This document shows positions 11,318 through 30,084 of a stretch of DNA of 35,717 nt, piece by piece (positions within the stretch are counted from its first letter, which is position 1; every line of letters starts with the position of its first letter). Location: IMG/VR virus record IMGVR_UViG_3300006099_000051; one strand, given 5' to 3'. The notes under the pieces were generated by a model. That model was not told the origin of the DNA, made no database searches, and worked only from the letters and a program-made list of their open reading frames with translations. This DNA is from a virus. The translations under genes and the position numbers were made by a program.

Positions 11318-11346
11318 CTGGATTATATTTTCAATTAAAAAAATGC

Positions 11347-11438: not shown

Positions 11439-11468
11439 ACCGCTTTGCGTTGCAAGGCGGTTTTTTTT
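11439..11468 (+). terminator. Intrinsic terminator in the leader downstream of late promoter copy A
   Basis: accgctttgc-gtt-gcaaggcggt forms a 10-bp stem, followed by T8. It lies directly upstream of the fibre gene RBS aagggagg. Confidence 0.85.
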
Positions 11469-11485
11469 GTTGTAAGGGAGGAATT

Positions 11486-11848: not shown

Positions 11849-11859
11849 TGAGGGCGGAT

Positions 11860-12873: not shown

Positions 12874-12877
12874 TAGT

Positions 12878-13917: not shown

Positions 13918-13926
13918 GGGCAAAAT

Positions 13927-15846: not shown

Positions 15847-16256
15847 ATGCGGAAAATTTAATTAAAAAATATACACCGGTTTATTTAAAGGCGCATCCAT
15901 GTCTTTGTGGCTATTGGGTTATCAGTTATTGGCTACGGTTTTATCCTGACAGCGGCAAAGCTGTGCAGCCGGGGGATGAGATGACACTTGATGAGGCTGA
16001 TGAGCTTTTACGTCAACATCTTGATAAGCTGGAACTGCCCGAGCGTCGGTGGTTGCCTAACGGGGAGTGGCCAAATAATCAGCGGGAAGCTTTAAAATCA
16101 ATCATGCATTATTTGCAGGAGGATTGGGCTGGCTCGGAATTAAAGCACGCGCTGGAAGCCGGTGATTGGGCTGTTGCAAAGGAACTTTGGCTTAATCTCG
16201 GCATGCCGGAATGGCGGCAGGAAGAGGTAGAGCTGTTCTTCGGGGCTGCCGGATAA
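15843..16256 (+). CDS. GH24 lysozyme-like protein lacking the catalytic signature
   Basis: ATGA overlap with the fibre gene. The GYWVISYW...MTLDEADELLRQHL...NQREALKSIMHYL...LEAGDW...EEVELF spacing mirrors phage lysozymes, but the E/D/T catalytic positions are replaced. Confidence 0.5.
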   Translation: MNAENLIKKYTPVYLKAHPCLCGYWVISYWLRFYPDSGKAVQPGDEMTLDEADELLRQHLDKLELPERRWLPNGEWPNNQREALKSIMHYLQEDWAGSELKHALEAGDWAVAKELWLNLGMPEWRQEEVELFFGAAG

Positions 16257-16328
16257 TTATTATAAACGCCTATCGACAACGACTATCTGAGACTATCAAT
16301 AATAATCAATGCTTGGGAGCTGTAAACG

Positions 16329-16589
16329 ATGGCTAAAATAACAGGCGAGTTGCGGAAGCTCGGGAAAAAAAATCCAGAATTATTGTTGCAAAAACTCGAG
16401 GCGGTGGAACTTACTGACCTCGAGTTTCTTATTATGAGGCTTCGTTATATTGACGGGTTGGTATTTAAACAGATACCGGACATTGCCGGCGTATCGGAGC
16501 GGTGGGTTTATAAAGTGCATAAAAAGGCTGCTCAAAAGACAGCTGCCAGTATAAAATTGGCGGAATGGCTGGCTTTAACCGGACGGTAA
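16329..16589 (+). CDS. Small sigma-70 region-4-like HTH protein
   Basis: 86 aa. LTDLEFLIMRLRYIDGLVFKQIPDIAGVSERWVYKVHKKAAQK resembles sigma region 4 / LuxR-type HTH. Confidence 0.55.
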   Translation: MAKITGELRKLGKKNPELLLQKLEAVELTDLEFLIMRLRYIDGLVFKQIPDIAGVSERWVYKVHKKAAQKTAASIKLAEWLALTGR

Positions 16590-16643
16590 AAGGACAGTTC
16601 TAAGCCATTATGTCGGCGATTCCTTATCGCTATCCTGAAAAGG

Positions 16644-16667
16644 TAAGCAATGGTGCTTATTTTTTTT
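16644..16667 (+). terminator. Intrinsic terminator
   Basis: taagca-atgg-tgctta stem-loop followed by T8. Confidence 0.6.
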
Positions 16668-16679
16668 AGGAGAAAAAGT

Positions 16680-17366
16680 ATGGGAATTGAATTTAATGCA
16701 TCCAATGCCGGTTCGATGGCTTGGAAAGGCTTTAACACCCTGCTCGGCGCTGCCGGTACTGCTATGGGCGCAACAGCTTTGGGTTCAAAGACCAGCGAAG
16801 AAAAAGTTCGTGAAATTTTTCGCGAAGAAGTTGGCCGTTATGGCGGATATGGCCGTTCGGTAAATGATACTGTGGTTATTTCTCAGCCATGTTCTGAAAA
16901 TACTCACGTTACTCGTTTTGAGCTGGAACAGTCTCAACGCATTTCTGAACTCGAATCGTCTAAAGAGACGGATGCCAAAATTTTGGAAGTTTGGAAAGCT
17001 GCTGCTGCTTCAGACCAACGTCAGGATGAAAAATTTGCGCAACTGACAAAATCGCTGACTGATTATGTGATTGCCAATAATCGCGAAGTTGACGCGATTA
17101 GATGCGATGCTCGTTTGAACAATCAGGAAATCAGAGATAATCTGCGTTTCTTGGACTACAAGATTGATAATAATCAGCGCGAAATGTATGCGTATGTTGA
17201 TTGCAAGACTCTGCCGCTTGAGAAAAAGCTGCCGTTGTCTTCAATCTGTCCGCAGCCGATGCCCGGATGTGTACCTGTCGGTTTCGAAGGGCAAGTTGTT
17301 AATACAACTGCAACCGGTGAGACCAACACGGTTATTTCCGCTAATAAGGCTGCTGCACCTAAATAA
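16680..17366 (+). CDS. Hypothetical protein with an N-terminal glycine-zipper-like hydrophobic segment, a central coiled coil and a Cys/Pro-containing C-terminus
   Basis: RBS aggagaaaaagt upstream of the ATG at 16680. LLGAAGTAMGATALG, then long helical Q/E/R-rich segments. No family recognised. Confidence 0.65.
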   Translation: MGIEFNASNAGSMAWKGFNTLLGAAGTAMGATALGSKTSEEKVREIFREEVGRYGGYGRSVNDTVVISQPCSENTHVTRFELEQSQRISELESSKETDAKILEVWKAAAASDQRQDEKFAQLTKSLTDYVIANNREVDAIRCDARLNNQEIRDNLRFLDYKIDNNQREMYAYVDCKTLPLEKKLPLSSICPQPMPGCVPVGFEGQVVNTTATGETNTVISANKAAAPK

Positions 17367-17416
17367 CCTACAGAGCGGGCGGTTGCAGACAGTGCCGTCC
17401 GCTCTCCAAACGGAGA

Positions 17417-17755
17417 ATGAACATGAAAATTAGCCTAGAAAATGCCGTCAAGGCAACGAGCGAATATCTTAACAAAGAGTTTTCGGCAATGGGTGAGGAC
17501 AAAGACAAGAGATGGGCAGCGTTTGGAATGCATATGATCGCTGAATACAAGATGGCGACAGCCGGCACTAAAGCTTTAAAAATGCTGGATGATGGCACGG
17601 GATTTATTGATTTAGACGTTTTGGACGGCTTTATCGGTAAATATGCTGCGGATTTGCCTGACAAAAGTTTTGCTACTCTTTTGGGCGAAATAAAGATTAA
17701 AGCTGATACCCCGGCTGAATATTTGGAACATCTTAAAAAATACGGAGAAAATTAA
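17417..17755 (+). CDS. Hypothetical protein (112 aa)
   Basis: RBS acggaga. ORF with normal codon usage. No motif recognised. Confidence 0.6.
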   Translation: MNMKISLENAVKATSEYLNKEFSAMGEDKDKRWAAFGMHMIAEYKMATAGTKALKMLDDGTGFIDLDVLDGFIGKYAADLPDKSFATLLGEIKIKADTPAEYLEHLKKYGEN

Positions 17756-17952
17756 TGATGGACGTTAAAGTTGAAGAATTGCATGCCGAGCTGCATAAAG
17801 GCGTAAAAATGATTGTTGATGCTCTTGGTGATATGTGTCAACAGGAAAATGTTCCGGCTTCGTTCATGATGGATATGTCGGGTATTCTTAAAGACATGAG
17901 TAAGGTGGAAAAGAATTTGGCCGAAGCGGCATATTATGCCCGCAAAGCGTAA
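17755..17952 (+). CDS. Hypothetical protein (65 aa)
   Basis: TAATG start-stop overlap with the upstream gene. Predicted helical. Confidence 0.55.
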   Translation: MMDVKVEELHAELHKGVKMIVDALGDMCQQENVPASFMMDMSGILKDMSKVEKNLAEAAYYARKA

Positions 17953-17972
17953 TTATTATGGTTTGGACTAAC

Positions 17973-17997
17973 AGCCCGCAAGTATGCGGGCTTTTTT
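17973..17997 (+). terminator. Intrinsic terminator upstream of the lysis cassette
   Basis: agcccgca-agta-tgcgggct stem-loop followed by T6. Confidence 0.85.
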
Positions 17998-18010
17998 ATT
18001 GGAGTAAGCA

Positions 18011-18295
18011 ATGGACTATTTGGCTTTATTTGTTTCATTTTGTGCGGGAATTTGGAATGTGCTGCAAGATACGTCAAAATTAATTTCGAGAAAAGTATGC
18101 GCCTTTATGTTAGGCGCTATTTTTTGTTACGGCGCGGTTAAAATTGCCAGTTCTTACGGCTTGTCGCATGAAGCTGCAGCCTGTGTGGGGTATTTCTTGG
18201 GCGTATTGAGCATAACCATCTATGACGTCACTGTGCAGTGTTTGCATAAAATTCCCGTGATTTTTGAAAAAAGAATGGGAGGTAAACATGATTGA
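18011..18295 (+). CDS. Holin (about 3 TM)
   Basis: 94 aa with three hydrophobic segments and a charged C-terminus. It lies immediately upstream of, and overlaps, the endolysin gene. Confidence 0.7.
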   Translation: MDYLALFVSFCAGIWNVLQDTSKLISRKVCAFMLGAIFCYGAVKIASSYGLSHEAAACVGYFLGVLSITIYDVTVQCLHKIPVIFEKRMGGKHD

Positions 18296-18758
18296 TATGA
18301 GCGAAGCCGTGCAGCGTTTGACGTTGCACGAGGGAATCCGTTTGCAGCCTTATCGCTGTCCTAAGGGATATTTGACAATCGGGGTCGGTCGAAATTTAGA
18401 TACGAATCCGCTGACGCCGGAAGAAAAAAGGCTGTGCGGCGATTATATGCACGGAATTATTAAAGAGCAGGCTTTTTATTTGCTACGCAATGATATTCGC
18501 CGGGTGGTTAAAGAATGTGAGCAACATATTCCATTTTGGAATGAGTTGGATGACGAGCGACAATATGCGCTAGTTGATATGGCGTTTAATCTGGGCATAA
18601 AGGGATTGCTGGGGTTTAAGAAAATGCTGAGTTATTTAGGCGTTGGCAATTATATCAAAGCCGCTGCGGAATGTTTGGCATCGCGTTATGCCAAAGAAGT
18701 TGGACGGCGCGCCGTCAGAATCTCAGAAATTATCCGGACCGGCAAATTTAAGCTATGA
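18288..18758 (+). CDS. Endolysin, GH24 (T4-type) lysozyme
   Basis: RBS gggagg upstream of the ATG at 18288. LHEGIRLQPYRCPKGYLTIGVGRNL...RQYALVDMAFNLG carries the E...D...T lysozyme signature. Confidence 0.9.
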   Translation: MIDMSEAVQRLTLHEGIRLQPYRCPKGYLTIGVGRNLDTNPLTPEEKRLCGDYMHGIIKEQAFYLLRNDIRRVVKECEQHIPFWNELDDERQYALVDMAFNLGIKGLLGFKKMLSYLGVGNYIKAAAECLASRYAKEVGRRAVRISEIIRTGKFKL

Positions 18759-18768
18759 GGAGAGGAGT

Positions 18769-18987
18769 ATGGCTCATATTGTGCTTCGTTTGCTTGTTTG
18801 TAGTTTTATTCTGCTTGGAGCTTTTGGCTGCGGTTATTCTATTGGCCGCAGCCGGGCCGTTGTAAAAGAAATTGAAAAACGGGTGGAGGTGATTAAATAT
18901 GTGGAAAAGCAAAAGGCGGCTATTCATGCGAAGCCTAACGCTGGCCGCGATGAGCTGCTTAGCCTCATGCGCGCAGGTAAATTCTGA
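18769..18987 (+). CDS. i-spanin (Rz-like)
   Basis: RBS gaggagaggag upstream of the ATG at 18769. N-terminal TM LRLLVCSFILLGAFG, then a charged helical periplasmic part. Confidence 0.75.
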   Translation: MAHIVLRLLVCSFILLGAFGCGYSIGRSRAVVKEIEKRVEVIKYVEKQKAAIHAKPNAGRDELLSLMRAGKF

Positions 18988-19126
18988 TTACTGCCCGGTT
19001 TATCCGGTTGCCGGCGAGGCTGTGGCGGCGGAACTGGAAAAGGCCAACTATTCGGAATTTCCGAACACTTGGGAATGGCTGGGAAGAATTGATAAATTGA
19101 GGCAGGAGTTAGAGCTGTGTAAATAA
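18899..19126 (+). CDS. o-spanin (Rz1-like lipoprotein), overlapping the i-spanin gene
   Basis: Signal peptide with lipobox LASC. Short Pro-containing mature part. It starts inside the i-spanin gene in another frame. An alternative start is at 18926. Confidence 0.75.
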   Translation: MWKSKRRLFMRSLTLAAMSCLASCAQVNSDYCPVYPVAGEAVAAELEKANYSEFPNTWEWLGRIDKLRQELELCK

Positions 19127-19149
19127 TTTTATTTTTTTTGAAAAAAACA

Positions 19150-19178
19150 TTGACATTAATGATACTTTAAGGTATCAT
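19150..19178 (+). promoter_or_regulatory. Strong sigma70 promoter with an overlapping palindromic operator
   Basis: TTGACA (19150-19155), 17 nt, TATCAT (19173-19178). The inverted repeat ATGATAC-n6-GTATCAT (19159-19178) covers the spacer and the -10. Confidence 0.7.
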
Positions 19179-19234
19179 ATGTGTATAAGGAAGCCAGAGG
19201 GGCAAACCTTTTATAATCTAGAGGAGATTTTCAA

Positions 19235-19513
19235 ATGAAACTTTTTGATGGCGAAGAAATCGTTTACAGCATTTATGATCGTGCAGCCAATGAAGTTTGG
19301 TCTGTTTCTTATAAAACTTATGAAGCCGCCGAAGCTGAAGTCCAACAATATATCAAAGATGAAGTAGCTGGCGTACGCGAGCAAGATTATTCTGATATTG
19401 AAGAATTTGAAGAGGCAAAAGCCAATTTACAGGAAAGCCTTGAGTCTGATATTGAAATTTTTGAAGAGGGTGAATTTACTGCGTTAGGACGTGGTAATAA
19501 AATTAAGGAATAA
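19235..19513 (+). CDS. Small, strongly acidic protein (92 aa)
   Basis: RBS gaggag. About a quarter of the residues are D/E (EEFEEAKANLQESLESDIEIFEEGEF). No family recognised. Confidence 0.7.
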   Translation: MKLFDGEEIVYSIYDRAANEVWSVSYKTYEAAEAEVQQYIKDEVAGVREQDYSDIEEFEEAKANLQESLESDIEIFEEGEFTALGRGNKIKE

Positions 19514-19515
19514 CT

Positions 19516-19872
19516 ATGCGCGGTTATTTATCAGGAACAGAATATCGCGCCATCCGTGAAAGTTTGGGATTGACACAGGCAGAAGCCGCGGCTCTTCATG
19601 GACTTAAAGGTGTATTGACTATCAAACGCTGGGAAGCCGGGCGGAGCTATATATCAAAAGCTGCTTGTGATAAAATAGTGTCATTGTGCCGAAAATTTTA
19701 TACAGAGCAGGAAGAGCTATTTCGTTCTTTGAGAAAAAAAGAGGAGGAGATTGTTTTAACATTTCCTCCAGCGGGCGGGGATTTTATGGCTTCTCTTGAA
19801 AGAACAAAAATCAAAAATTTATATGTCCGTCTTAGATCTGAAGGGTATTGCGTGAGATTGGTAAAGTCTTAA
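19516..19872 (+). CDS. XRE-type HTH regulator (118 aa)
   Basis: LSGTEYRAIRESLGLTQAEAAALHGL...TIKRWEAGRSYISKAA is a typical HTH_XRE N-terminus. It starts 2 nt after the upstream stop. Confidence 0.75.
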   Translation: MRGYLSGTEYRAIRESLGLTQAEAAALHGLKGVLTIKRWEAGRSYISKAACDKIVSLCRKFYTEQEELFRSLRKKEEEIVLTFPPAGGDFMASLERTKIKNLYVRLRSEGYCVRLVKS

Positions 19873-20139: not shown

Positions 20140-21219
20140 TTAATCGATGAAAACTGAATCTAGTGCTTGACGTTTTTCATCGTCAAGCGTGTGCGCATAC
20201 TTTAATGTTGTATTGATATTAGCATGGCCTAAAAGTTCTTTTGTCGTTCTTAGATTTTTTGTTTTGCGCAAAACCCAAGTTGCAAAAGTATGGCGTAGTG
20301 TATGAAAGTTTGTGTAAGGCAAGGTTGGATCTTTCAATTCCCTACTAAAAGATTTTCTTGTGTTTCTTTTATAGAAAATATTGCGCCAAGCAGTAGAGAT
20401 GCTTTTGATTGGTTTATTTTTATAGTTAAAAACATAGTTATTAATTTTGGGTTGATTTTCAAGGATCGCCATTAAAGGCTTGGCAATTGGCATTGTGTGG
20501 ATTTTTCCTCCGGATTTTGTGGAATCCTTGACTTTCAATGTTATTTGTCCGGTGTTAAAATCTATTTCTGACCATTTAAGATTAAGGATGTTACTTTCGC
20601 GAAATCCTGTATAGAGTGCCGTATATATAATTGGCTTTAAATGATCCGCAGCTTTATCTATTATTCTTTGAGCATAATTCCAATCTTTCAGATATTTGAT
20701 ATTTTCAGCAGGTTCTTTAAGTTTAAATTTTGAAAGCCTGATGGGGTAAGTTTTTACTTTCCATTCTTCGTTTGCGGTTCTTAAAACGGCGGAAAGAAGG
20801 TAAAGATAGCGGTTTATTGTGGAATTGCTTAGTGTGCCGCGATTTTGAGTAATGAAGCTGTTTATTTGCAGTTCGGTAATTTCGTGTAAATAGTATATTT
20901 TTAAATCATGTTTGAGTTTTGATAAGCGGCTTAATCTTTGTTGGGGGAGAGTTAGATATTGGCCTTTTTCCTGAAAATAACGGGCAAACGCCTCGTCAAT
21001 GGTTATGCAGGGCAATTCACCATTGGCTTGTTGACGAGCTTTCTTTTGCAATTGCGCAATTCTCTTGATGCAATATTGGATTGCTTTTGCTTCATCCGTT
21101 GTTCGAGTAGTCTCTCTAAACTGTATTCTGGCTCCGTTTTCGTCAATATACGAGATATAGGCATGGTAGATGTCGCCTCTTTTGAACAATCTATATGGTT
21201 CGTTGTGTCGTTTTGCCAT
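20140..21219 (-). CDS. int: Tyrosine integrase
   Basis: 359 aa. The C-terminus HTLRHTFATWVL...LLGHANINTTLKYAH carries the R..HxxR..Y catalytic pattern. It is adjacent to the tRNA-derived attP. Confidence 0.95.
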   Translation of the reverse strand: MAKRHNEPYRLFKRGDIYHAYISYIDENGARIQFRETTRTTDEAKAIQYCIKRIAQLQKKARQQANGELPCITIDEAFARYFQEKGQYLTLPQQRLSRLSKLKHDLKIYYLHEITELQINSFITQNRGTLSNSTINRYLYLLSAVLRTANEEWKVKTYPIRLSKFKLKEPAENIKYLKDWNYAQRIIDKAADHLKPIIYTALYTGFRESNILNLKWSEIDFNTGQITLKVKDSTKSGGKIHTMPIAKPLMAILENQPKINNYVFNYKNKPIKSISTAWRNIFYKRNTRKSFSRELKDPTLPYTNFHTLRHTFATWVLRKTKNLRTTKELLGHANINTTLKYAHTLDDEKRQALDSVFID

Positions 21220-22321: not shown

Positions 22322-22552
22322 TTACTCCCTAATCTCAAACAAATCGTTGATATTAGCTTTGCTTTTGCCGATATATGTTTCAGTAGTATATCCCCATAAA
22401 AATGCTCCCTGAAAATCCTCAGTAATACAATAAGGATTGACAAAGTCAGATGTATTAATGACTATAGCTTTATACGTTCCTGCGTTAGGGTCATATATTT
22501 CCCATATATCGCCAACTTGTGGTTTATTTTCACTCACTTTCTCTACCCTCAT
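22322..22552 (-). CDS. Hypothetical early protein (76 aa)
   Basis: ORF in the coupled leftward gene string. No motif recognised. Confidence 0.6.
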   Translation of the reverse strand: MRVEKVSENKPQVGDIWEIYDPNAGTYKAIVINTSDFVNPYCITEDFQGAFLWGYTTETYIGKSKANINDLFEIRE

Positions 22553-22916
22553 AAAAAGTTACTTCATCTCTGCGTACGGGGCGGCACTTTTTAAACCCCA
22601 TATTGTTGTTATCTTCAAAAGGATATTCTTCATCCATGTTGACTGAGATTAGCAATCCTGTTTCTCTCCTTCCTAAGCCATTATCCCAAAGCCAGCACAG
22701 ACATTTATTTTTGATGATATAATCCCAATCAATAGGCTCTTGGTAAATTTCCCAATCATCCGCTGTTAATTCGTTAGGTTCTAAAAAGTAACTGTCACCG
22801 TATTCATCTTTTGCATACAATCCACATAATTTAATATATTTTTTCTCTCCCCAATCTTTTCGCCTAATCTTTGCCCCGTTTCTGAACTCGGGCAAAAGTT
22901 CTTCTAAATATGACAT
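22530..22916 (-). CDS. DUF2829 (Tad2-like) N-terminal domain protein
   Basis: The ATG at 22916 follows RBS ggaga. LLPEFRNGAKIRRKDWGEKKYIKL...LTADDWEIY matches the DUF2829 pattern (GKKxxRxxW...yi...DllAxDWei). Confidence 0.6.
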   Translation of the reverse strand: MSYLEELLPEFRNGAKIRRKDWGEKKYIKLCGLYAKDEYGDSYFLEPNELTADDWEIYQEPIDWDYIIKNKCLCWLWDNGLGRRETGLLISVNMDEEYPFEDNNNMGFKKCRPVRRDEVTFYEGRESE

Positions 22917-22920
22917 TGGC

Positions 22921-23055
22921 TTATCTCCATAAAATGGCAGCATGAACTACCGCGCCGAATAAGCAAACAACAAAAGCTGAAGCGCGCTTTTCTATAATAG
23001 CGATAACAACAAGTGCGCAAAACCATCCAAATACGAAACAATTAAAATCAAACAT
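22921..23055 (-). CDS. Small membrane protein (44 aa, below the track cutoff)
   Basis: RBS aaggag upstream of the ATG at 23055. MFDFNCFVFGWFCALVVIAIIEKRASAFVVCLFGAVVHAAILWR has two hydrophobic segments. Confidence 0.45.
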   Translation of the reverse strand: MFDFNCFVFGWFCALVVIAIIEKRASAFVVCLFGAVVHAAILWR

Positions 23056-23117
23056 TATTAATCTCCTTTATCTTTTTAGCGTCTACCTATTCCGCCACCC
23101 TCAAAATAGCTAAATAG

Positions 23118-23654
23118 TTAAAGCTTAACAGCGAGAACCGGCCTGACGTAGAGATTGTAATGGTACTTACTGCCGTAGGCCCTATAACCATACCTCATAG
23201 CGAATAGCCACGCATCGATAATATCGTACTCGGTAGAGGACCAATACCAGCTTTCCAGTTTTTCACCGTTTGCGGCTGTTAATCCGGCATTTACGTCCTC
23301 GATATTTAAGTGAATTAATGTTAACTCCCGGATGTCGGGGACGCGATATCCTTCAGGTAATTCTAACCCCATGGCTTTGTTCCAAGTAAATTCATCTTCG
23401 CAGTCTTCATCTTCAAAATCTTTTAGCGATACGAAAACGCCATAAAATCCGTCTTCTTTTTTGAGTTCTCCTGCGTATACGCCTTTGTCCGGGTAGTGTT
23501 TGCCAACTTCGTAGATTTTGCGCAGCTGCTCCATCGGCGTTTCGGACTGTTCCGCTTCTTTAGCCGGGATAATCAGTGCAAGTTCCGGATAGTCGCCGTG
23601 CATATGGGCGTTTAAAATTTCTTCATGGGTTTCAAGCATTATAACGTTTTTCAT
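23118..23654 (-). CDS. DUF1566 (Lcl C-terminal-like) domain protein, paralogue 1
   Basis: The C-terminus ...VPDIRELTLIHLN...WYWSSTEYDIIDAWLFAMRYG...YVRPVLAV matches the xWSSTE...AW...G...VRPV signature. Confidence 0.7.
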   Translation of the reverse strand: MKNVIMLETHEEILNAHMHGDYPELALIIPAKEAEQSETPMEQLRKIYEVGKHYPDKGVYAGELKKEDGFYGVFVSLKDFEDEDCEDEFTWNKAMGLELPEGYRVPDIRELTLIHLNIEDVNAGLTAANGEKLESWYWSSTEYDIIDAWLFAMRYGYRAYGSKYHYNLYVRPVLAVKL

Positions 23655-23663
23655 GGTAGAGTC

Positions 23664-23879
23664 CTATTTTTGATTAAAAGATTTATCAAGATGGGCGCGT
23701 TCGGCAGCGCAGAGCGTTTCATAAACCGCTTTCATGCAATTCAGTTCATAATCAGCAACAACCTGATCCATTTTTCCGCGGGCAATCATGTTGGGATAAA
23801 AATTTTCGCGGCGACGTATTTCACGGATGACGCACTGGATTTGGTTGCTGATTTTGCTGTATGTTGGTGTTTTCTTCAT
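23664..23879 (-). CDS. Hypothetical early protein (71 aa)
   Basis: RBS aaggagc. ORF in the leftward operon. Confidence 0.6.
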   Translation of the reverse strand: MKKTPTYSKISNQIQCVIREIRRRENFYPNMIARGKMDQVVADYELNCMKAVYETLCAAERAHLDKSFNQK

Positions 23880-24001
23880 ATTTGCTCCTTATGTTGATTT
23901 AATATTGTTGAGGTGTTGACCTGGATTCCGGCTCGGAGGCCGGAATGACAAAGAAAAACAGCTTGAATGACAGTGCCGATTGAGGGCGTAGCATTAATAG
24001 A

Positions 24002-24253
24002 CTATTTTAATTTATCAACGGCGGTGGGAATGCGCGCCCAGAATTTGATGTTGCGGGTATCGGAAAATTTATTTCCAATCCATGTTGAAACATCGTAATT
24101 ATAAGGCGGGATGCCGTTGTTGATGTGTTCGCCGGCAAATTTGCTTTTATAAAAGCGCGGGTTAGGGTAGGCGATTAGAAATGTGTTCCAGCGCTCGATT
24201 TCTGTTGGCTTTTGTGCCGGATACGGATTCCAAAAGGGGGAGCGGTTAATCAT
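24002..24253 (-). CDS. Hypothetical early protein (83 aa from MINRSPFWNPYP)
   Basis: The ATG at 24253 overlaps the stop of the upstream micro-ORF (ATGATTAA). The track ORF extends to 24304. Confidence 0.55.
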   Translation of the reverse strand: MINRSPFWNPYPAQKPTEIERWNTFLIAYPNPRFYKSKFAGEHINNGIPPYNYDVSTWIGNKFSDTRNIKFWARIPTAVDKLK

Positions 24254-24383
24254 TTTTTTCCTCATTGATAAAAGTTTTTTTGTAGATGATGTCCAGCTGC
24301 TCAAAGCTGGGGTTCATTTTGGCTTGTTCTAAAATCTGGCGTATGGTTTGCAGATTTTCGATGGCTTTTGAATTGGTGTTCAT
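24246..24383 (-). CDS. Small hypothetical protein (45 aa)
   Basis: RBS aaggagc upstream of the ATG at 24383. MNTNSKAIENLQTIRQILEQAKMNPSFEQLDIIYKKTFINEEKND. Confidence 0.45.
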   Translation of the reverse strand: MNTNSKAIENLQTIRQILEQAKMNPSFEQLDIIYKKTFINEEKND

Positions 24384-24458
24384 GTTTGCTCCTTGCGTTG
24401 CTGGGATGCCTTATCCTCGCATTCTGGTCGAACGCTCGAAGGCATGACGGCTGTGGGG

Positions 24459-24608
24459 TTACCTCATAAATTGGATAAGTGTATAAAGCGGCAGGAACTT
24501 CAGGCAGAAGCCGCAAAATCCGGCGGTCAATTGATCTGTGAGACGGATACAGCGCTCAATATGCTGTAATTCTGACGGCTCATCGTATAAGTAATAATCT
24601 GGCTGCAT
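24459..24608 (-). CDS. Small Cys-containing hypothetical protein (49 aa)
   Basis: RBS ggaggaac upstream of the ATG at 24608. MQPDYYLYDEPSELQHIERCIRLTDQLTAGFCGFCLKFLPLYTLIQFMR. Confidence 0.35.
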   Translation of the reverse strand: MQPDYYLYDEPSELQHIERCIRLTDQLTAGFCGFCLKFLPLYTLIQFMR

Positions 24609-24650
24609 AGGGTGTTCCTCCGGCTAAATAGGTGAATCGATAAAGTAAAT

Positions 24651-25055
24651 TTATAAAGCGAGAACCGGCCTGACGTAGTTATTGCTACCGTTCTTATAGT
24701 AGTAGTTCCTATTACCAATATTCATAGTGAATCTCCACGCACTGTAATTAGTGAACTCGGTAGAGGACCAGACTGTTTCATCATCAATGGGGGTAAATCC
24801 AGCAGCCGTGAGGGATTGGTTCAAAACCCCTTTATTGTCATAAATCGCTTGGCATTGGCGCAGATTGGGCATTTCGGCAAAAAGTTCCTCACATTCCTTT
24901 TTTCCGTCGTACCAGTCAACATCTTCAATCATCTCCGGATGCATGGCAAAGGCGTGATACTCATCTTCAACGACTACAATGCCTTTGAACTTTTTGTTCT
25001 CGTCAAACTCCGGGCTGATGGTCCCGTCAAAATAAGCGTAATCTCCTGTTTTCAT
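24651..25055 (-). CDS. DUF1566 domain protein, paralogue 2 (first gene of the leftward early operon)
   Basis: ...MPNLRQCQAIYDNKG...VWSSTEFTNYSAWRFTMNIG...YVRPVLAL. RBS aggag. Confidence 0.7.
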   Translation of the reverse strand: MKTGDYAYFDGTISPEFDENKKFKGIVVVEDEYHAFAMHPEMIEDVDWYDGKKECEELFAEMPNLRQCQAIYDNKGVLNQSLTAAGFTPIDDETVWSSTEFTNYSAWRFTMNIGNRNYYYKNGSNNYVRPVLAL

Positions 25056-25091
25056 TTTTTTATCTCCTGTGTTTATTCATTTTGTGTATGT

Positions 25092-25120
25092 ATATTTATT
25101 CATAAAATGAATAATGTCAA
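25092..25120 (-). promoter_or_regulatory. PL-like early-left promoter with an embedded operator
   Basis: On the minus strand: TTGACA (25120-25115), immediately followed by the palindrome TTATTCA-n5-TGAATAA (25096-25114) and an AT-rich -10 (AAATAT). Same layout as the rightward promoter at 26783. Confidence 0.7.
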
Positions 25121-25164
25121 TAGAAGAAATAAAAAAATATTCTTAATATGAATATGTAAGGGCG

Positions 25165-25187
25165 AGAAAAACCGCCCGAAGGCGGTT
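25165..25187 (-). terminator. Intrinsic terminator of the cI-DUF3800 operon
   Basis: On the minus strand: aaccgcc-ttcg-ggcggtt followed by ttttt. Confidence 0.75.
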
Positions 25188-25267
25188 GGAAGGAAAGAGG
25201 GTGGTTAATTTTTTGGGAGGTACTGTGTTGAATTTTCACATAAATAGTATAAATGCTATTTATTATG

Positions 25268-25296
25268 TTGACATCTATATGATGATTTGTTATATC
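25268..25296 (+). promoter_or_regulatory. Promoter of a candidate small RNA
   Basis: TTGACA (25268-25273), 17 nt, TATATC (25291-25296), with a TGt extended -10. Confidence 0.55.
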
Positions 25297-25302
25297 TATA
25301 AA

Positions 25303-25381
25303 TGGAATTGCCCGCTATACCGAAGCAGCTCCGTACGGAGTGTGCAAAGCTCGACAAGAGAGGTAGGTTAGCGGGTTTTTA
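25303..25381 (+). ncRNA. Candidate ~78-nt structured small RNA, convergent with the DUF3800 gene and antisense to the immunity-operon 3' UTR
   Basis: GCCCGCTA (25310-25317) pairs with TAGCGGGT (25369-25376), followed by a U-run. There is an internal hairpin CTCC-GUAC-GGAG (25329-25340). No credible ORF. Confidence 0.45.
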
Positions 25382-25981
25382 TTTAAAAATCCATACATCC
25401 AATTTCTTATTGATTTGATTTAGCCATTTTTTTTGTGATTCTGTTGGTGTTGGTGAATGGGCGTGGATGGTAAGGCCGACTATCATATCGGCTAATTGGA
25501 TAAGGCGGTTATTTTTAGAATCTTCGTATTTTATTTTTGCTACATTGTTGCCTGCTTGAGAACGAATATAGTTAATAAGTTCAGTTTTAACTGAATCTTT
25601 TTTGCCGTCTAATTTTACAGAGGCGTTATTTAGTCTAGCGTGAGTTAAAACCTGTTTGAGGAAAAAGTTATAAAATTTATTAGCGTTACTGCGCAATTCT
25701 GAGCTGTTTACGAGTTTTTTGTTTACATAGAGGATTTTTGCGCGGAAATGACAGGCAGATATTTCTTGAAAAAATATATCTTTTACGCGATTGCAAGTTT
25801 TTGAGTATTTGAATTCAGAAAGGTGTCTTGCTTGTGTTGCAATGTGATTTATGGTTAATTCAGTATCCTCGGCATCCTTGGAATCTTCAAATATGATTAG
25901 GGCAAAAGCAAAGTTTTGCGAGGAATTTGCTTTAAATCCAGGATCGCCGCTTTCATCTATAAAAACTAATTGCTTAGTCAT
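25379..25981 (-). CDS. DUF3800 domain protein, translationally coupled to the repressor gene
   Basis: The N-terminus LVFIDESGDPGF and the C-terminal LIQLADMIVG match the DUF3800 pattern. Its ATG overlaps the cI stop (TAATG). Confidence 0.75.
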   Translation of the reverse strand: MTKQLVFIDESGDPGFKANSSQNFAFALIIFEDSKDAEDTELTINHIATQARHLSEFKYSKTCNRVKDIFFQEISACHFRAKILYVNKKLVNSSELRSNANKFYNFFLKQVLTHARLNNASVKLDGKKDSVKTELINYIRSQAGNNVAKIKYEDSKNNRLIQLADMIVGLTIHAHSPTPTESQKKWLNQINKKLDVWIFK

Positions 25982-26733
25982 TATCCTACCTTTTCCGCTT
26001 TAAGTGTGTAAATAATGCGGCCGAGAATGATAATATCTGATAATTTGGCATTTTCGTCTTTATAGTGCTGGTTGTCAGATAGAATTCTTATGGTGTTGGG
26101 TTCGGCGGAGCCTTGCAGGCGTTTGACGGCCAAGCCGGTGGAAAGGTGCAACAAATATATGCCGTCTGATTCCGGTGCGCGGCGCGAGGTATCTGTCAGC
26201 ACCCAGTCGCCGTCTTTTAAGGTTGGTTCCATGCTGTCGCCGCAGATGCGCAGCATTTTTATTTTGTCAGGCGTAGATGTATGAGAAATTGTGCGGAAAT
26301 CTTCGGTCGATATAATCCATTGGCCGGAGACGTTTTCGGAAAAGTTGTCAATCCCGTTGCCACAACAGGCGGTAACGTCCAGAATATCAATGGCGATATT
26401 GTCGGCAGGGGCTTTTTTGAAGAAGGAAGAAACGGTGTTGACGATTTTTTCGGCCGCGGCGGTGGTACCGGAAGTCGGAAGAGATAATGAGATTTTATCA
26501 GCTTTTCCCAAATTGTACGCGGTTAATTCACCTAAATCTAGGTTAAAAAATTTTGCAATATTATAAAGTTTGCTGGAAGGAATGTCTCTTTTATTGGATA
26601 ACAATTCAGAAACGCGTGCTTGATTCCAGTCAACTTTTTCCGCAAATTCTGCCTGGCTTATTTTGCGCTGCGTTAATATGTCATTCATCCATTGCCATTT
26701 ATTCATTGTTTTTTTTTGCCTCTTTTTATACAT
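25981..26733 (-). CDS. cI: CI/LexA-type repressor (HTH_XRE + S24 peptidase)
   Basis: ISQAEFAEKVDWNQARVSELLSNKR is the HTH. GDSMEPTLKDGDW...GLAVKRL is the S24 Ser/Lys signature. The start is at 26733 (possibly leaderless) or 26706. The track ORF upstream of these starts is non-coding. Confidence 0.9.
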   Translation of the reverse strand: MYKKRQKKTMNKWQWMNDILTQRKISQAEFAEKVDWNQARVSELLSNKRDIPSSKLYNIAKFFNLDLGELTAYNLGKADKISLSLPTSGTTAAAEKIVNTVSSFFKKAPADNIAIDILDVTACCGNGIDNFSENVSGQWIISTEDFRTISHTSTPDKIKMLRICGDSMEPTLKDGDWVLTDTSRRAPESDGIYLLHLSTGLAVKRLQGSAEPNTIRILSDNQHYKDENAKLSDIIILGRIIYTLKAEKVG

Positions 26734-26740
26734 ATTGTGT

Positions 26741-26768
26741 ATAATATCACATTTTTTTTGTTTGTAAA
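26741..26768 (-). promoter_or_regulatory. PRM-like repressor-maintenance promoter
   Basis: On the minus strand: TTTACA (26768-26763), 16 nt, TGaTATTAT (26749-26741). The ATG at 26733 lies about 8 nt after the -10, so the transcript may be leaderless. Confidence 0.5.
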
Positions 26769-26782
26769 ATGCATAAAATGAA

Positions 26783-26812
26783 TTGACATTATTCGTTTTG
26801 TGAATATATATA
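26783..26812 (+). promoter_or_regulatory. PR-like early-right promoter with an embedded operator
   Basis: TTGACA (26783-26788), immediately followed by TTATTC-n6-TGAATA (26789-26806) and a TATATA -10 region. cro starts at 26831. Confidence 0.75.
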
Positions 26813-26830
26813 AATGGTAGGAGGTGCAAA

Positions 26831-27028
26831 ATGCAAATACGAGCCAATAAAATTATAGAAGAATTTGGAGGAGTTTGTCGAATGGCAAAAGCTCTTGGTA
26901 TTTGGCCGAGTGTTGTGCAGGGGTGGAAAAATCGAAATAAGATTCCGATTTGGCGAATGTCTGTAATTTTATCCAAAGCAGCTGAAATGAATATTGATTT
27001 GGCTGATATAGATGATGGAGAGGAATAG
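26831..27028 (+). CDS. cro: Cro-like small HTH regulator
   Basis: 65 aa. FGGVCRMAKALGIWPSVVQGWKNRNKIP resembles Cro/YdaS-type HTH. RBS ggaggtg. Divergent from cI. Confidence 0.8.
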   Translation: MQIRANKIIEEFGGVCRMAKALGIWPSVVQGWKNRNKIPIWRMSVILSKAAEMNIDLADIDDGEE

Positions 27029-27691
27029 ATGGATATTTCGTCTCTGGAAAACAAAATTATCAATGCAGATTGTCTGGATATTCTTAAACAGCTGCCGGAT
27101 AAGTGCGTTGATTTAGTGCTGACTGACCCGCCGTATGGGATAGGTAATAAATTTACATCGGAATATGGTTTACAAGTTCAGAAAAGCAAGAGGGGGAGTT
27201 TTTCTTGGAATGATGCAATTCCATCCAAAGAAATTTTTGACGAAATTAAACGTGTTTCAAGGAATCAAATAATATTTGGCGGTAATTATTTTACAGAATA
27301 TTTGAAGCCGACAAATTCATGGCTGATTTGGGATAAGGTGGGGGAATATAATTTAAAGAATCCTTTTTCCGATTGTGAATTAGCATGGACAAGTTTTAAA
27401 AAGCCGATGCGCAAATATACGATTGTTAATATGGGGTTTATTTCCCAATCTGAAGAAAAAGGTAAAAGAATTCATCCGACTCAAAAGCCATTAAAGCTCT
27501 TTCAGAAAATTTTATCTGATTTCAGCAAGGAAAATGACCTTGTTCTTGATTGTTTTTCCGGTTCGGGGACGACAGCGGTGGCGTGTCATAAGCTAAAACG
27601 GCGGTTTATTTGTATTGAAAAAGATTTTGACTACTGGAAGTCCAGCGTTGCCCGGCTGGATGAGGTTCAGAGGCAGGGCAGTTTGTTTTAA
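27029..27691 (+). CDS. DNA methyltransferase, N6-adenine/N4-cytosine type (beta class), orphan
   Basis: LVLTDPPYG (motif IV) precedes VLDCFSGSGTTAVA (motif I). HPTQKPLKL is also present. No adjacent endonuclease. Confidence 0.9.
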   Translation: MDISSLENKIINADCLDILKQLPDKCVDLVLTDPPYGIGNKFTSEYGLQVQKSKRGSFSWNDAIPSKEIFDEIKRVSRNQIIFGGNYFTEYLKPTNSWLIWDKVGEYNLKNPFSDCELAWTSFKKPMRKYTIVNMGFISQSEEKGKRIHPTQKPLKLFQKILSDFSKENDLVLDCFSGSGTTAVACHKLKRRFICIEKDFDYWKSSVARLDEVQRQGSLF

Positions 27692-27709
27692 CAGATATAA
27701 GGAGGCATA

Positions 27710-27937
27710 ATGTTTGGTTTTGGCAAGAAAAAGAAGCATGTTCGATTGGACAAGGGCTGCGATAACGCGACAATAGAGAATTCTTATATAAATGAGTTTA
27801 ATCGGTTGGCGGCTAAGATTGTTGATGAGCAAAACCGATTGAAAGCGGATCATTGGGATAAGGAAGCTTTTGAACAGCTTGATACTATGGTTAAGAGGAT
27901 GTCTTTTTTGGCTTATCGGCATGGTTTTAGTAAATAA
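27710..27937 (+). CDS. Hypothetical early protein (75 aa)
   Basis: RBS aaggagg. No motif recognised. Confidence 0.6.
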   Translation: MFGFGKKKKHVRLDKGCDNATIENSYINEFNRLAAKIVDEQNRLKADHWDKEAFEQLDTMVKRMSFLAYRHGFSK

Positions 27938-27951
27938 GAGAGGAGAAAGTT

Positions 27952-28566
27952 ATGGAAGATATGAATATGGTGGCGCATTGTGTTGCTATTGGCGGTGTGG
28001 GGATGGTGTTGGGAGCTGTTGTTTCTTGGCTATATTGTGTATTAGCCGCCGGCAGCCCCAGCGGGGCAGGCACCGGCAGCGCCCCCGGCGGGGGAGACTT
28101 CACAGGCACGGAGATGCCTAATCCTCGCACATGCCAGTGTGTTCGGAGGCATGACGGAAAGGATGGTGACGTTGTAACGGCGGAAATTGAAGTTATTCCA
28201 GAGATTGGGGAATATGTAAAAGGCCGCGGGGTATATGCCGGTATTAACCGGAGCGGCAAGCATTTGTATGTACGCTTGAAAGATCATTTGATGGAGATGA
28301 GCTGGAGCGGGATGATGAAGCAGTATAAGCCGGAAAATCTGCCGACAATCGAAGATTTGGTGTTGATTTATATTCACAATGACAAAATTAACGCGGGCTT
28401 GATTGCTGCAGGCGGGCAGCCGTTAAAGGAAGATGGTTTCTATTGGTCCTCTACCGAGATCTATTATAACTACGCGTGGAAGTTCAGTATGCATAATGGT
28501 CGCAGGTACAGCACCAGTAAGTACTCTAGCAATGGCTACGTCAGGCCGGTTCGTTTGTTGGGATAA
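27952..28566 (+). CDS. DUF1566 domain protein, paralogue 3, with an N-terminal TM segment and a Gly/Pro-rich linker
   Basis: VAIGGVGMVLGAVVSWLYCVLAA is the TM segment. The C-terminus reads NLPTIEDLVLIYIHNDK...FYWSSTEIYYNYAWKFSMHNG...YVRPVRLL. Confidence 0.7.
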   Translation: MEDMNMVAHCVAIGGVGMVLGAVVSWLYCVLAAGSPSGAGTGSAPGGGDFTGTEMPNPRTCQCVRRHDGKDGDVVTAEIEVIPEIGEYVKGRGVYAGINRSGKHLYVRLKDHLMEMSWSGMMKQYKPENLPTIEDLVLIYIHNDKINAGLIAAGGQPLKEDGFYWSSTEIYYNYAWKFSMHNGRRYSTSKYSSNGYVRPVRLLG

Positions 28567-28573
28567 GTCGCCA

Positions 28574-28963
28574 ATGAAGAAAATGCATGCGCTTAAAGGA
28601 AAAGCTCAAGAATTAGCGAAAAAGTTTGGAGTTTCGCAGGAAATAGCAGACAGCTTTAGTTATGAGGATGAAGAAATGGAAAAAGAGCCTAAGATGCAAA
28701 TTGTTTATGATGCAGACAATGACAGTAAGAATATTCAACTGTCGGCCGATCGGTTGCGGTCATTGATTGAACGAGTGGAGCGTTTGGAGGAGGAAAAGGC
28801 AGCCATCGGCTCGGATATTCGCGATGTTTTTGCCGAAGCGAAAAGCGCGGGGTTTGACGTGAAATGTATGCGGGCGGTTATTAAGCTGCGGAAGATGAAT
28901 GCCGCGGATCGTGATGAGCAAGAGCTGTTGCTGGATACTTATTGCAAAGCTTTGGATATGTAG
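28574..28963 (+). CDS. GapR / DUF2312 (UPF0335) family DNA-binding protein
   Basis: LRSLIERVERLEEEKAAIGSDIRDVFAEAKSAGFDVKCMRAVIKLRKMNAADRDEQELLLDTYCKALDM aligns closely with the GapR core as I recall it. The ATG is at 28574; the track ORF starts further upstream. Confidence 0.8.
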   Translation: MKKMHALKGKAQELAKKFGVSQEIADSFSYEDEEMEKEPKMQIVYDADNDSKNIQLSADRLRSLIERVERLEEEKAAIGSDIRDVFAEAKSAGFDVKCMRAVIKLRKMNAADRDEQELLLDTYCKALDM

Positions 28964-29003
28964 CCGTTCAAGAGGCCGGCGATGAGTTCTGAACCCCTCC
29001 TGA

Positions 29004-29027: not shown

Positions 29028-29202
29028 AAATGGCCGGCAATGCCAGAGAAAGATTTCGGGGAGTATGAACGGAAGGCGGGCGCAGGCGTCCGTGAAGATG
29101 CAAACCATAAGGCAGAAAGCCGGTTCCCCGATTTACTGACATGACCGGCGAAATTTGCATCAACCTGCGCAGATTTTTTTTTATTCAATTAAGGATTTTG
29201 TG

Positions 29203-30084
29203 ATGGTGAAAATAAAATACATTGATTTGTTTTCCGGAATTGGCGGATTTACGCTGGGATTACAAAACGCCGGAATTGAATTTGACAGGCATTATTTTAG
29301 CGAGATAGATAAAAACGCTATTTCCATTTATAAAAAACATTTTCCAGCAGCAAAGGCGTTAGGCGATGTCACAACAATTAGAACTTTTTCAGGAATATCG
29401 GCCGATCTCATTACCTTCGGATTTCCCTGTCAAGATCTTTCATATGCTGGCAAAAGGCAAGGTTTGGCAGGCGCACGAAGCGGTTTGTTCTTTGAAGCGT
29501 TGCGGATTGTCAGGCAAGTTAAGCCTAAATATTTTATCTTTGAAAACGTCAAGGGATTGTTTACAAGTGACGGAGGAGCGGACTTTGTCAGATGTCTGCG
29601 AGAAATTGCCGACATTGGGCTATATGACTGCGAATGGCAGCTTGTTAATACAAGCTGGATATTACCCCAAAATCGAGAGCGGATATACTTTATCGGACAT
29701 CTTAGAGGAGCATCCTCCCCGAAAGTATTTCCTATCCGCGGACAGGCAGAAGAAAATAATAAATTTATTAAAGAAGCGCGGCGAGATTTAACCGTTTGGC
29801 CGGTGTGCGACATTACTTCTGCAAGTAAAATGCAAACTGGGCGGATGATTGGCGGTAGAAATGCATTTACTTTGACTACACGCAATATGCAGGGTGTTTG
29901 GAACGGGGAAAATTTTCGTTTTTTGATGCCGGTGGAGAGAGAACGTTTGCAGGGATTTCCCGATGGATGGACGGCCGAAGGAATAAACGGCGAAATAATA
30001 TCAGATAACGTTCGCGCAGAATTATTGGGGCGAGCCGTAACGGTGGGTATGGTTCAATTAATAGCACAGAAGTTATTCAATTAA
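29203..30084 (+). CDS. DNA (cytosine-5) methyltransferase, orphan
   Basis: DLFSGIGGF (motif I), FPCQDLS (IV), FENVKGL (VI), QNRERIYFIG (VIII), RERLQGFPDGW and GRAVTV (X). Confidence 0.92.
   Translation: MVKIKYIDLFSGIGGFTLGLQNAGIEFDRHYFSEIDKNAISIYKKHFPAAKALGDVTTIRTFSGISADLITFGFPCQDLSYAGKRQGLAGARSGLFFEALRIVRQVKPKYFIFENVKGLFTSDGGADFVRCLREIADIGLYDCEWQLVNTSWILPQNRERIYFIGHLRGASSPKVFPIRGQAEENNKFIKEARRDLTVWPVCDITSASKMQTGRMIGGRNAFTLTTRNMQGVWNGENFRFLMPVERERLQGFPDGWTAEGINGEIISDNVRAELLGRAVTVGMVQLIAQKLFN

Follow-up and report, generated by a model that had tools for sequence, protein, structure and literature searches.

A repressor-linked DUF3800 gene and a convergent DUF3800-IX-like small RNA in the predicted immunity region of a metagenomic temperate phage

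What does a DUF3800 gene do when it is joined to the repressor gene of a prophage, and is it alone there? The question was raised by IMG/VR virus record IMGVR_UViG_3300006099_000051, a stretch of 35,717 nucleotides (the window, below) in which a DUF3800 gene directly follows a cI-like repressor gene on the minus strand. A first-pass annotation, made from the letters alone, had treated the DUF3800 gene as a single protein-coding unit and as a candidate exclusion or defense factor. The unit was instead found to be a two-part cassette, composed of the DUF3800 gene and a convergent small RNA gene of the DUF3800-IX class. That the immunity region holds a DUF3800 gene together with an independently promoted, structured small RNA is put forward with high confidence. 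The genes concerned are as follows.

25981..26706, minus strand: cI-like repressor gene, 241 amino acids (aa), with an N-terminal HTH_3 domain and a C-terminal Peptidase_S24 autocleavage domain.
25379..25981, minus strand: DUF3800 gene, 200 aa, with a predicted RNase HII-like fold.
25303..25384, plus strand: small structured RNA gene, a divergent form of the DUF3800-IX class (Rfam RF02968), located with covariance model R1 and convergent with the DUF3800 gene; its 5' end was set from the promoter position.

Downstream regions from loci with close DUF3800 homologues (e.g., P0012, 70% identity, and P0002, 86%) were aligned with that of the window. About 75 nucleotides (nt), starting a few bases past the DUF3800 stop codon, were near-invariant, while the remaining spacer had diverged beyond alignment. 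At the DNA level, the window and its relatives were 81-90% identical over the RNA element, 70-80% over the DUF3800 coding sequence and 57-66% over cI. Eleven structured RNA motifs, DUF3800-I to -XI, have been described as accompanying DUF3800 genes, several of them ending in intrinsic terminators, and no function was proposed for them (Weinberg et al., 2017, Nucleic Acids Res 45:10811, PMC5737381). A genome scan using one genome per species gave 80 loci with DUF3800 homologues at 34-68% identity, and an element of the same kind followed the DUF3800 stop in almost all of them. Rfam RF02968 matched 13 of 20 distant loci at 43-71 bits (gathering score 36.8), always antisense to DUF3800. No RF02968 match was obtained from the whole window at the Rfam gathering threshold, nor from either strand of 25050-25450 at E ≤ 10, and the close relatives L015-L017 (loci are numbered here only where they need to be told apart) were likewise missed.

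As the Rfam model misses the window RNA, a new covariance model, R1, was built from 55 distant loci, with the window's clade left out; those of the 55 that were also scanned with Rfam were RF02968 matches. R1 matched 25308..25384 on the plus strand over the full model length (1-77) with 31.3 bits and E = 1.9e-7, the sole significant match in the 35.7-kb window with filters off (next best E = 0.87). The RNA was found by R1 in 76 of 82 genome and metagenome loci, always antisense to and abutting DUF3800, and in 17 of 23 IMG/VR viral contigs. This DUF3800 subfamily is strictly paired with this RNA across phyla. By its architecture, position and orientation, and by its recognition with a model built from members, the window RNA is classed as a divergent member of RF02968.

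Weak microRNA and small nucleolar RNA matches in the Rfam scans were chance matches to AT-rich hairpins. A phage attachment site (attP) or tRNA fragment as the cause of the conservation was rejected, as ARAGORN found no tRNA, the integrase gene is 4 kb off and the element covaries.

The predicted RNA (~82 nt) folds as a three-way junction of helices P1, P3 and P2, with a minimum free energy of -28.4 kcal/mol (z = -2.9). The helices, and the signals predicted to start and end the transcript, are listed below.

25310-25321 pairing with 25366-25375, plus strand: P1 helix.
~25326-25345, plus strand: P3 hairpin, GCAGCUCC-GUAC-GGAGU.UGC.
~25350-25362, plus strand: short P2, CUC-GACAAGA-GAG.
25268..25296, plus strand: candidate sigma-70 promoter of the small RNA, with -35 TTGACA (25268-25273), a 17-nt spacer and an extended -10.
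25366..25384, plus strand: candidate intrinsic terminator of the small RNA, formed by the P1 3' strand and the U-run TTTTTATTT (25376-25384).

The conserved junction and hairpin elements CCGAA, CCGUAUGG and UAGG are present in the window RNA. A clade-specific alignment yielded the same P1/P3/P2 fold, in a version with a long P1, a lower P3 made entirely of Watson-Crick pairs, an invariant G-U pair in the upper P3 and a short P2; compensatory changes were seen inside the clade, e.g., from CUC/GAG to CUU/AAG in L017 and at five covarying P1 pairs. In the wider covariation alignment (74 distinct sequences), which was fitted to the model so that its figures are flattered, changes on both sides that keep the pair were counted at 21 of 24 base pairs, 91.5% of cells were paired compared with 32-51% when partners were slid by one to three columns, and none of 500 shuffles reached the covariation values. 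RNAalifold, run independently on an alignment made with MAFFT alone, gave double changes in 16 of 19 pairs.

Because G-U/U-G (181) far exceeded A-C/C-A (20) among the non-Watson-Crick helix cells when read antisense to DUF3800, the RNA strand was assigned as the one antisense to DUF3800. The fold of the minus (DUF3800) strand, with z = -3.8, was rejected on these same counts and on the location of the promoter and U-run on the plus strand. The extended -10 reads TGT-TATATC, with the TG at 25288-25289 and the -10 at 25291-25296. Across loci, the -10 of the best sigma-70 match ended 9-14 nt ahead of the model start in 66 of 76 distinct cases, with the -35 column fixed, and the small RNA is predicted to be transcribed independently from this constitutive-looking promoter. 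At the other end, the U-run at 25376-25384 overlaps the DUF3800 stop codon (25379-25381) and the last codon. P1 was followed by T5-7 in 10 of 10 clade members, the Rfam RF02968 consensus ends in P1 plus UUUU, and distant loci often carry an additional hairpin, with a T-run on the RNA strand only.

The window therefore shares with other DUF3800-IX loci (RF02968, PMC5737381) the same protein family, the junction closed by P1, the CCGAA and UAGG strands, the CCGUAUGG hairpin, the terminator made of P1 and a U-run, and an opposite-strand RNA that abuts the DUF3800 3' end. It differs from the Rfam family in a shortened and shifted P2, the all-Watson-Crick lower P3 and an Rfam score below detection. 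Unlike other DUF3800-IX loci, the window cassette is fused to a prophage cI operon, and in our sample this holds for one phage clade only, for which gut alphaproteobacterial MAGs (metagenome-assembled genomes) are the nearest genome matches.

Two deviating forms of the RNA were observed among the other loci. A variant with UAACGG for CCGAAC and AAGG for UAGG lies ~20-100 nt past DUF3800 in L032, L034, L061 and L063, which belong to Micavibrio aeruginosavorus and to MAGs of Parvibaculaceae, Alphaproteobacteria and Pseudomonadales; Rfam missed it and R1 was weak on it (L032 31 bits, L063 19.6). When the matched DUF3800 frame of L030 is extended to its stop codon, the RNA (~3617-3693) comes to lie ~110 nt before that stop. 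This frame seemingly runs beyond the usual protein end, and may be frameshifted or have lost the normal stop.

The protein half of the cassette is an ordinary DUF3800 member. It matched Pfam PF12686 over residues 5-170 (53.6 bits, cut-off 21, E = 5.3e-14), and 314 homologues were found. The acidic motifs that had been picked out earlier (FIDESGD and LADMIVG) were confirmed by conservation: FIDESGD (D9, E10) and LIQLADM (Q162, D165) are both present, D9, E56, K88, D125, S155, Q162 and D165 were invariant in 39 homologues down to 36% identity, and position 10 was E or D in all 39. The protein thus carries the N-terminal DE and C-terminal QxxD motifs described for DUF3800 (PF12686) by Mestre et al. 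(2020, PMC7736814).

An AlphaFold2 model was built with the 39-sequence alignment (mean predicted local distance difference test, pLDDT, 92; predicted template modeling score, pTM, 0.89). When this was searched against the PDB with Foldseek, as the first-pass annotation had advised, the top ten matches were all RNase HII/H2 (E 6e-6 to 6e-4, template modeling (TM) score 0.53-0.61, probability 1.00). The best were the archaeal RNase HII structures 2dff, 1uax, 3p83 and 1i39 (E 6e-6 to 1e-5); the species represented were T. kodakarensis, P. horikoshii and A. fulgidus, and human RNASEH2A was also matched. Against predicted viral structures (BFVD), the model matched DUF3800 proteins first and RNases H next. 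The metal-dependent nuclease-like fold suggested earlier therefore stands at the level of the fold (pLDDT 92; archaeal RNase HII, E ~6e-6, TM ~0.6) and not at that of sequence profiles: Pfam at E ≤ 0.01 returned DUF3800 only, with no RNase_HII, and a profile search of PDB sequences returned no RNase H and one spurious match only. With RNase HII/H2 (2dff, 1i39, human RNASEH2A 3puf) the protein shares the fold (TM ~0.6) and an N-terminal hIDE(S/A)G strand motif, while sequence identity is only 11-14%. The active site of RNase HII is D-E-D-D, the first two residues lying in an N-terminal hIDEAG strand. D9/E10, D125 and D165 of the DUF3800 protein are presumably the equivalents of these carboxylates.

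RNase H/H2-like models of DUF3800, with a DE motif near the N-terminus and QxxD near the C-terminus, have independently been reported by Altae-Tran (2023, PMC10910872) for the TPR-DUF3800 accessory of Cas12a2 loci and by Mestre et al. (2020, PMC7736814) for type VII retrons, in which DUF3800 is the effector. No experimental function for DUF3800 was found in the literature, in agreement with the earlier remark that the family has no experimentally defined role. The protein matched PADLOC models PDC-M04A (E = 1.4e-10) and PDC-S51 (E = 3.9e-10), and a literature search gave no paper describing PDC-S51 or PDC-M04.

The cI-like open reading frame (ORF) was read from a plausible ATG at 26706. Its product matched HTH_3 (E = 1.8e-8) and Peptidase_S24 (E = 3.3e-17) in Pfam, and PHROG 4 'transcriptional repressor' (E = 6e-35). 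The tight coupling of a DUF3800-family gene (PF12686, as above) to an S24 repressor gene was seen as first described, with an overlap of one base: in GGATAATGACT, base 25981 is common to the TAA stop of cI and the ATG of DUF3800 (TAATG). Translation of DUF3800 is probably coupled to that of cI. The two genes are putatively co-transcribed, and since DUF3800 would be transcribed with cI, it is expected to be made in lysogens.

25163..25188, minus strand: terminator-like hairpin and U-run (RNAfold), AACCGCC-UUCG-GGCGGUU then UUUUUCUC.

The hairpin proper (~25171-25188) is GC-rich with a 7-bp stem and is followed by UUUUUCUC. Relatives carry a hairpin and T-run at the equivalent place with different stem sequences. 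The operon terminator that had been placed at 25165-25187 is to this extent upheld, by RNAfold and by its retention in relatives; a simple terminator scan did not call the hairpin at 25163-25188. The cI-DUF3800 transcript likely ends there, and the hairpin at 25171-25188 is plausibly the equivalent of t(imm). The ~190 nt between the DUF3800 stop and this terminator hold no ORF of note. A cI-DUF3800 transcript that reaches the terminator would therefore be antisense to the small RNA over its full length, and to its promoter as well.

The same interval also contains a weak minus-strand promoter-like site, ATGTCA-17-TATACT (25274..25246, 9 of 12 matches), which overlaps the small RNA -35. Between this site and the minus-strand terminator is a C/U-rich stretch (CCUCCC, CCACCCUCUUUCCUUCC) that could be a second short transcript. 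The score of the site is at chance level (13 sites vs. 9.5 expected), and the stretch is unconserved in relatives.

The surroundings of the cassette were then compared with those of lambda rexAB, using the lambda terms for the right and left operators (OR, OL), the right and left early promoters (PR, PL) and the repressor maintenance promoter (PRM).

26741..26815, both strands: divergent promoter/operator region between cI and a cro-like gene (promoter scan, motif search and repeats).
25076..25153, minus strand: OL/PL-like region with two palindromes and a PR-like copy, at the left edge of the immunity region.
26831..27028, plus strand: cro-like gene, 65 aa, divergent from cI (P22_Cro E = 1.3e-5, below the Pfam cut-off).

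On the right, an operator-like palindrome, ATGCATAAAATGAAT, lies at 26769-26783, with a partial copy at 26792-26805, and the promoter scan placed two promoters here, one PRM-like (26768..26741, minus strand) and one PR-like with TTGACA (26782-26815, plus strand). On the left, operator-like 15-nt palindromes were found at 25098-25112 (ATTCATAAAATGAAT) and 25139-25153 (ATTCTTAATATGAAT). The 15-nt palindrome motif had 8 matches vs. 2.2 expected, and 0 of 100 shuffles reached 8. Repeat families D2 and I1 were found in the cI-cro region; I1 pairs the 34-nt promoter/operator segment 26782-26815 with an 88% copy at 25088-25121, which reads leftward into gene 24651..25055. The OR-like and OL-like palindromes are putative operators, and the comparison suggests that both sets may be bound by the same repressor and that the PL-like element may be an early promoter for the Lcl_C-domain gene (24651..25055). 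The cro-like protein matched PHROG transcriptional regulators.

The order of elements is OR/PR/PRM, cI, DUF3800, small RNA gene, minus-strand terminator hairpin, OL/PL-like region. Because operator and promoter copies flank the cI-DUF3800-RNA-terminator unit, the comparison with lambda rexAB is apt, and the rexAB-like position claimed for the gene is borne out by the OR-like (26769-26815) and OL/PL-like (25088-25153) copies that bracket it. The lambda genes rexA-rexB and sieB-type exclusion genes are co-transcribed with the prophage repressor. Like the window gene, rexAB follows cI within one transcription unit that is placed between OR and OL; the unit ends at a terminator ahead of a PL-like promoter, and expression in lysogens is expected. 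There is no sequence or fold relation to RexA/RexB, and searches of the DUF3800 protein with Pfam, PHROGs and PADLOC returned DUF3800-type matches only, with no RexA/RexB homology. Lambda Rex consists of a sensor and a membrane channel, whereas the window encodes a soluble RNase H-like protein and a small RNA.

How far the repressor belongs to the cassette was read from its distribution. DUF3800 homologue loci were found in Alpha-, Beta- and Gammaproteobacteria, in Saccharibacteria and other lineages of the Candidate Phyla Radiation (CPR), and in MAGs labeled Bacillota and Caldilineaceae (Chloroflexota); the closest genome loci to the window are gut and rumen MAGs labeled Alphaproteobacteria, and an uncultured alphaproteobacterium of the gut is taken to be the natural host. 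Every phage-context locus examined of the window's clade has an S24 protein immediately upstream of DUF3800, spaced by one shared base (L009-L014), 21 nt (L001-L008) or 21-23 nt (viral contigs L098-L100). The clade repressors are 43-52% identical to the window cI and the DUF3800 proteins 70-86% identical to that of the window. The cassette is taken to move between immunity types, because cI varies while DUF3800 stays conserved.

Placement downstream of an S24 repressor, which the first-pass annotation had proposed to survey, did not prove to be a general rule and is confined to the clade L001-L014 and L098-L100. In L015 and L017, which hold the nearest chromosomal copies (66-68% identity), no repressor lies upstream, and none of the distant viral copies examined adjoins an S24 gene. 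The ORFs next to L015 look like glycerol-3-phosphate dehydrogenase and chloramphenicol acetyltransferase. Saccharibacteria copies adjoin a sortase and a CdiA_C-domain gene, the Brucella copy adjoins a phage lysozyme, and viral-contig copies adjoin YopX, ParA or HTH_3 proteins, or unknowns. The cassette is thus portable: the closest MAG chromosomes, Saccharibacteria, Brucella and others carry it without a repressor. Cultured carriers of DUF3800-IX include Brucella and Brevundimonas strains. The inherited unit is DUF3800 plus RNA, and the repressor linkage is a local acquisition.

In two distant IMG/VR viral contigs, L115 and L119, DUF3800 is directly preceded by a gene for an HTH_3 protein (195-238 aa) in which no S24 domain could be recognized. 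These may be independent further pairings of a repressor-like gene with the cassette.

A working model for the window can be set out from these parts. The cassette would have been inserted with the repressor gene on one side and the OL/PL-like promoter on the other, the position that rexAB takes in lambda. DUF3800 would be made in lysogens with cI, and the RNA (~80 nt) from its own promoter. The RNA would bind the DUF3800 protein, and the structured RNA would restrain or license the nuclease, in the role that multicopy single-stranded DNA (msDNA) has in type VII retrons with their DUF3800 effector. When a phage infects or the element is lost, the RNA:protein balance would be disturbed and the nuclease freed. 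As a non-exclusive extra, the cI-DUF3800 mRNA would run antisense through the RNA gene, and the two transcripts could pair over ~80 nt. The explanation as a whole, anatomy plus functional reading, is given slightly less than an even chance. Its functional core, a lysogen-expressed module of toxin-antitoxin (TA) or abortive-infection type in which the RNA restrains a nuclease, is proposed tentatively and with a little less confidence again. A partnership of protein and RNA was preferred to antisense pairing because eleven unrelated RNA folds, in either orientation, accompany DUF3800 genes (Weinberg et al., 2017, PMC5737381). Hints of a link to defense come from the PADLOC matches (PDC-M04A, PDC-S51) and from other settings: DUF3800 serves type VII retrons as effector (Mestre et al., 2020, PMC7736814) and is an accessory of Cas12a2/a3 and type VI-F systems; in S. 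suis, a temperate phage has a DUF3800 gene that was marked as part of a retron VII; and in a Legionella transposon sequencing (Tn-seq) study a strain-specific DUF3800 gene (HL77S_00079) was scored essential and listed alongside antitoxins.

The retron comparison is close in form. Type VII retrons (Mestre et al., 2020, PMC7736814), like the window, combine a DUF3800 protein that has the N-terminal DE motif with its own structured non-coding nucleic acid, encoded beside the protein gene. The partner is msDNA in the retron and a plain transcript in the window. The glutamine of QxxD was reported to be missing from retron-linked DUF3800 (PMC7736814) and is present in the window protein as Q162. No reverse transcriptase domain was found in those of the window ORFs that were scanned, and the neighbors of the cassette are cI, upstream, and the Lcl_C-domain gene, downstream. 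With no adjacent reverse transcriptase, the locus is not a retron.

Several points weigh against the RNA-restrained nuclease. The joint cI-DUF3800 transcript and its end at the minus-strand hairpin are predicted from sequence only. In the literature, no experiment on any DUF3800 protein or RNA was found except negative self-cleavage tests, and the PADLOC models PDC-M04 and PDC-S51 are candidate systems only. Among 50,697 GenBank phage records, no match was found for 23000-29000 (megablast) or for DUF3800 (tblastn); as no cultured phage carries this DUF3800 subfamily, there is no phenotype to borrow. The Legionella result, if transferable, suggests that the protein is the protective partner, i.e., the opposite polarity. 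Type III TA and abortive infection systems (ToxIN, CptIN, TenpIN), like the window, pair a nuclease with a dedicated structured RNA and are borne on mobile elements. In type III systems the antitoxin RNA is a tandem-repeat array that precedes the toxin gene on the same strand, with a terminator separating the two, and is processed by the toxin, whereas the window has one R1 match and its RNA is single-copy, convergent and downstream, so that the locus is not a type III TA system. The type III toxin fold is ToxN/Kid-like and that of the window protein RNase HII-like.

Two other accounts, each improbable, survive best among the alternatives. In one, the RNA would act purely as a cis-antisense control without any RNA-protein complex, pairing with the 3' end of the DUF3800 (and cI) mRNA or colliding with its transcription, and so tuning mRNA stability or termination, much as in type I TA pairs with overlapping 3' ends. 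Throughout the subfamily the two genes converge and overlap, and the window mRNA must traverse the whole RNA gene before the minus-strand terminator, both of which would suit such control; yet the invariant CCGAA, UAGG and CCGUAUGG and the compensatory changes in three helices exceed what antisense pairing needs. Known type I toxins are small membrane peptides and not 200-aa RNase H-like enzymes. Other DUF3800 motifs, moreover, lie on either side of the gene and in either orientation, so that overlap is not a defining feature (Weinberg et al., 2017, PMC5737381).

In the other account, also improbable, the polarity would be reversed, with DUF3800 as a protective partner that degrades or processes a harmful RNA, or the two would form a ribonucleoprotein enzyme with the RNA as an obligatory scaffold or sensor subunit. 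RNase H-fold proteins often have RNA partners, as in Argonaute and the RuvC domains of Cas9/Cas12. In the view of Weinberg et al. (2017, PMC5737381), the complexity of the DUF3800 RNAs suits a 'sophisticated biochemical function', and the essential Legionella gene stands in the same list as antitoxins, a datum that is single and indirect. DUF3800 occupies the effector (toxin) slot of type VII retrons, which argues for the polarity proposed here. A guide-RNA role for the small RNA is unlikely, as its alignments have no variable single-stranded segment usable as a guide.

It is very unlikely that the protein is phage housekeeping, i.e., a replication RNase H for primer or R-loop removal, or a factor for lysogeny maintenance or induction, with no anti-phage role. 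The RNase HII-like fold fits this, and phages do encode RNases H (several were among the BFVD matches); the gene, however, is in the repressor operon rather than in a replication module, the identical cassette is found at non-phage chromosomal sites and also in CPR genomes of very small size, cI genes of differing specificity carry the same cassette, and replication genes differ among related clade phages. Similarly remote is a lone DUF3800 nuclease for exclusion or defense in lysogens, with nothing downstream except a 3' untranslated region and terminator, since the cI coupling, the immunity-region position and the nuclease-like fold that speak for it leave aside the most conserved feature of the unit, an element that is more conserved than the gene, covaries as an opposite-strand RNA, has its own promoter and accompanies the DUF3800 subfamily in 76 of 82 loci.

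The window as a whole looks like a complete, circularly permuted temperate phage genome.

32819..34171: terminase large subunit.
20140..21219: integrase.
1-19872: genes taken to be structural, judged by position.

Some further genes were recorded around the immunity region. Three small paralogues ending in an Lcl_C/DUF1566-like domain lie on either side of it, at 23118-23654 (minus), 24651-25055 (minus) and 27952-28566 (plus), with matches of E 6e-5 to 6e-7, all below the Pfam cut-off; such genes also occur in related prophages and putative host MAGs (L009-L014, L017). In the early-left operon, a 137-aa ORF (22530-22943, minus) gave a Tad2-like Thoeris anti-defense match just below threshold (23.8 bits vs. 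a cut-off of 25) and is a possible counter-defense gene. The early-right operon contains two DNA methyltransferase genes, an N6/N4 methylase directly after the cro-like gene (27029-27691, plus) and a C5 cytosine methylase further on (29155-30084, plus), with a GapR-like DNA-binding protein (28433..28963) between them.

The RNA-restrained nuclease brings together an ordinary protein and a known kind of RNA, and it overturns nothing established. What is new is the cI-operon context, the framing by OR-like and OL-like copies, the explicit strand, promoter and terminator anatomy of the RNA, and the recognition of a clade missed by Rfam, whose DUF3800-IX model passes over a whole clade of gut-metagenome phages. 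An RNA-protein pairing unexplained since 2017 thereby gains a concrete, testable setting: it is linked to cI within the immunity region of a prophage, at the site that is the usual home of exclusion and abortive-infection genes. More broadly, DUF3800 and its cognate RNA may form a new class of RNA-protein immunity or addiction system, in which a three-way-junction RNA checks or arms a nuclease and the wiring into the repressor operon would protect every lysogen, a conjecture that we would back less readily than the module itself. If true, it would supply a function for the DUF3800-IX motif, perhaps with a lead to the other ten motifs, and would explain the appearance of DUF3800 as a retron and CRISPR accessory effector.

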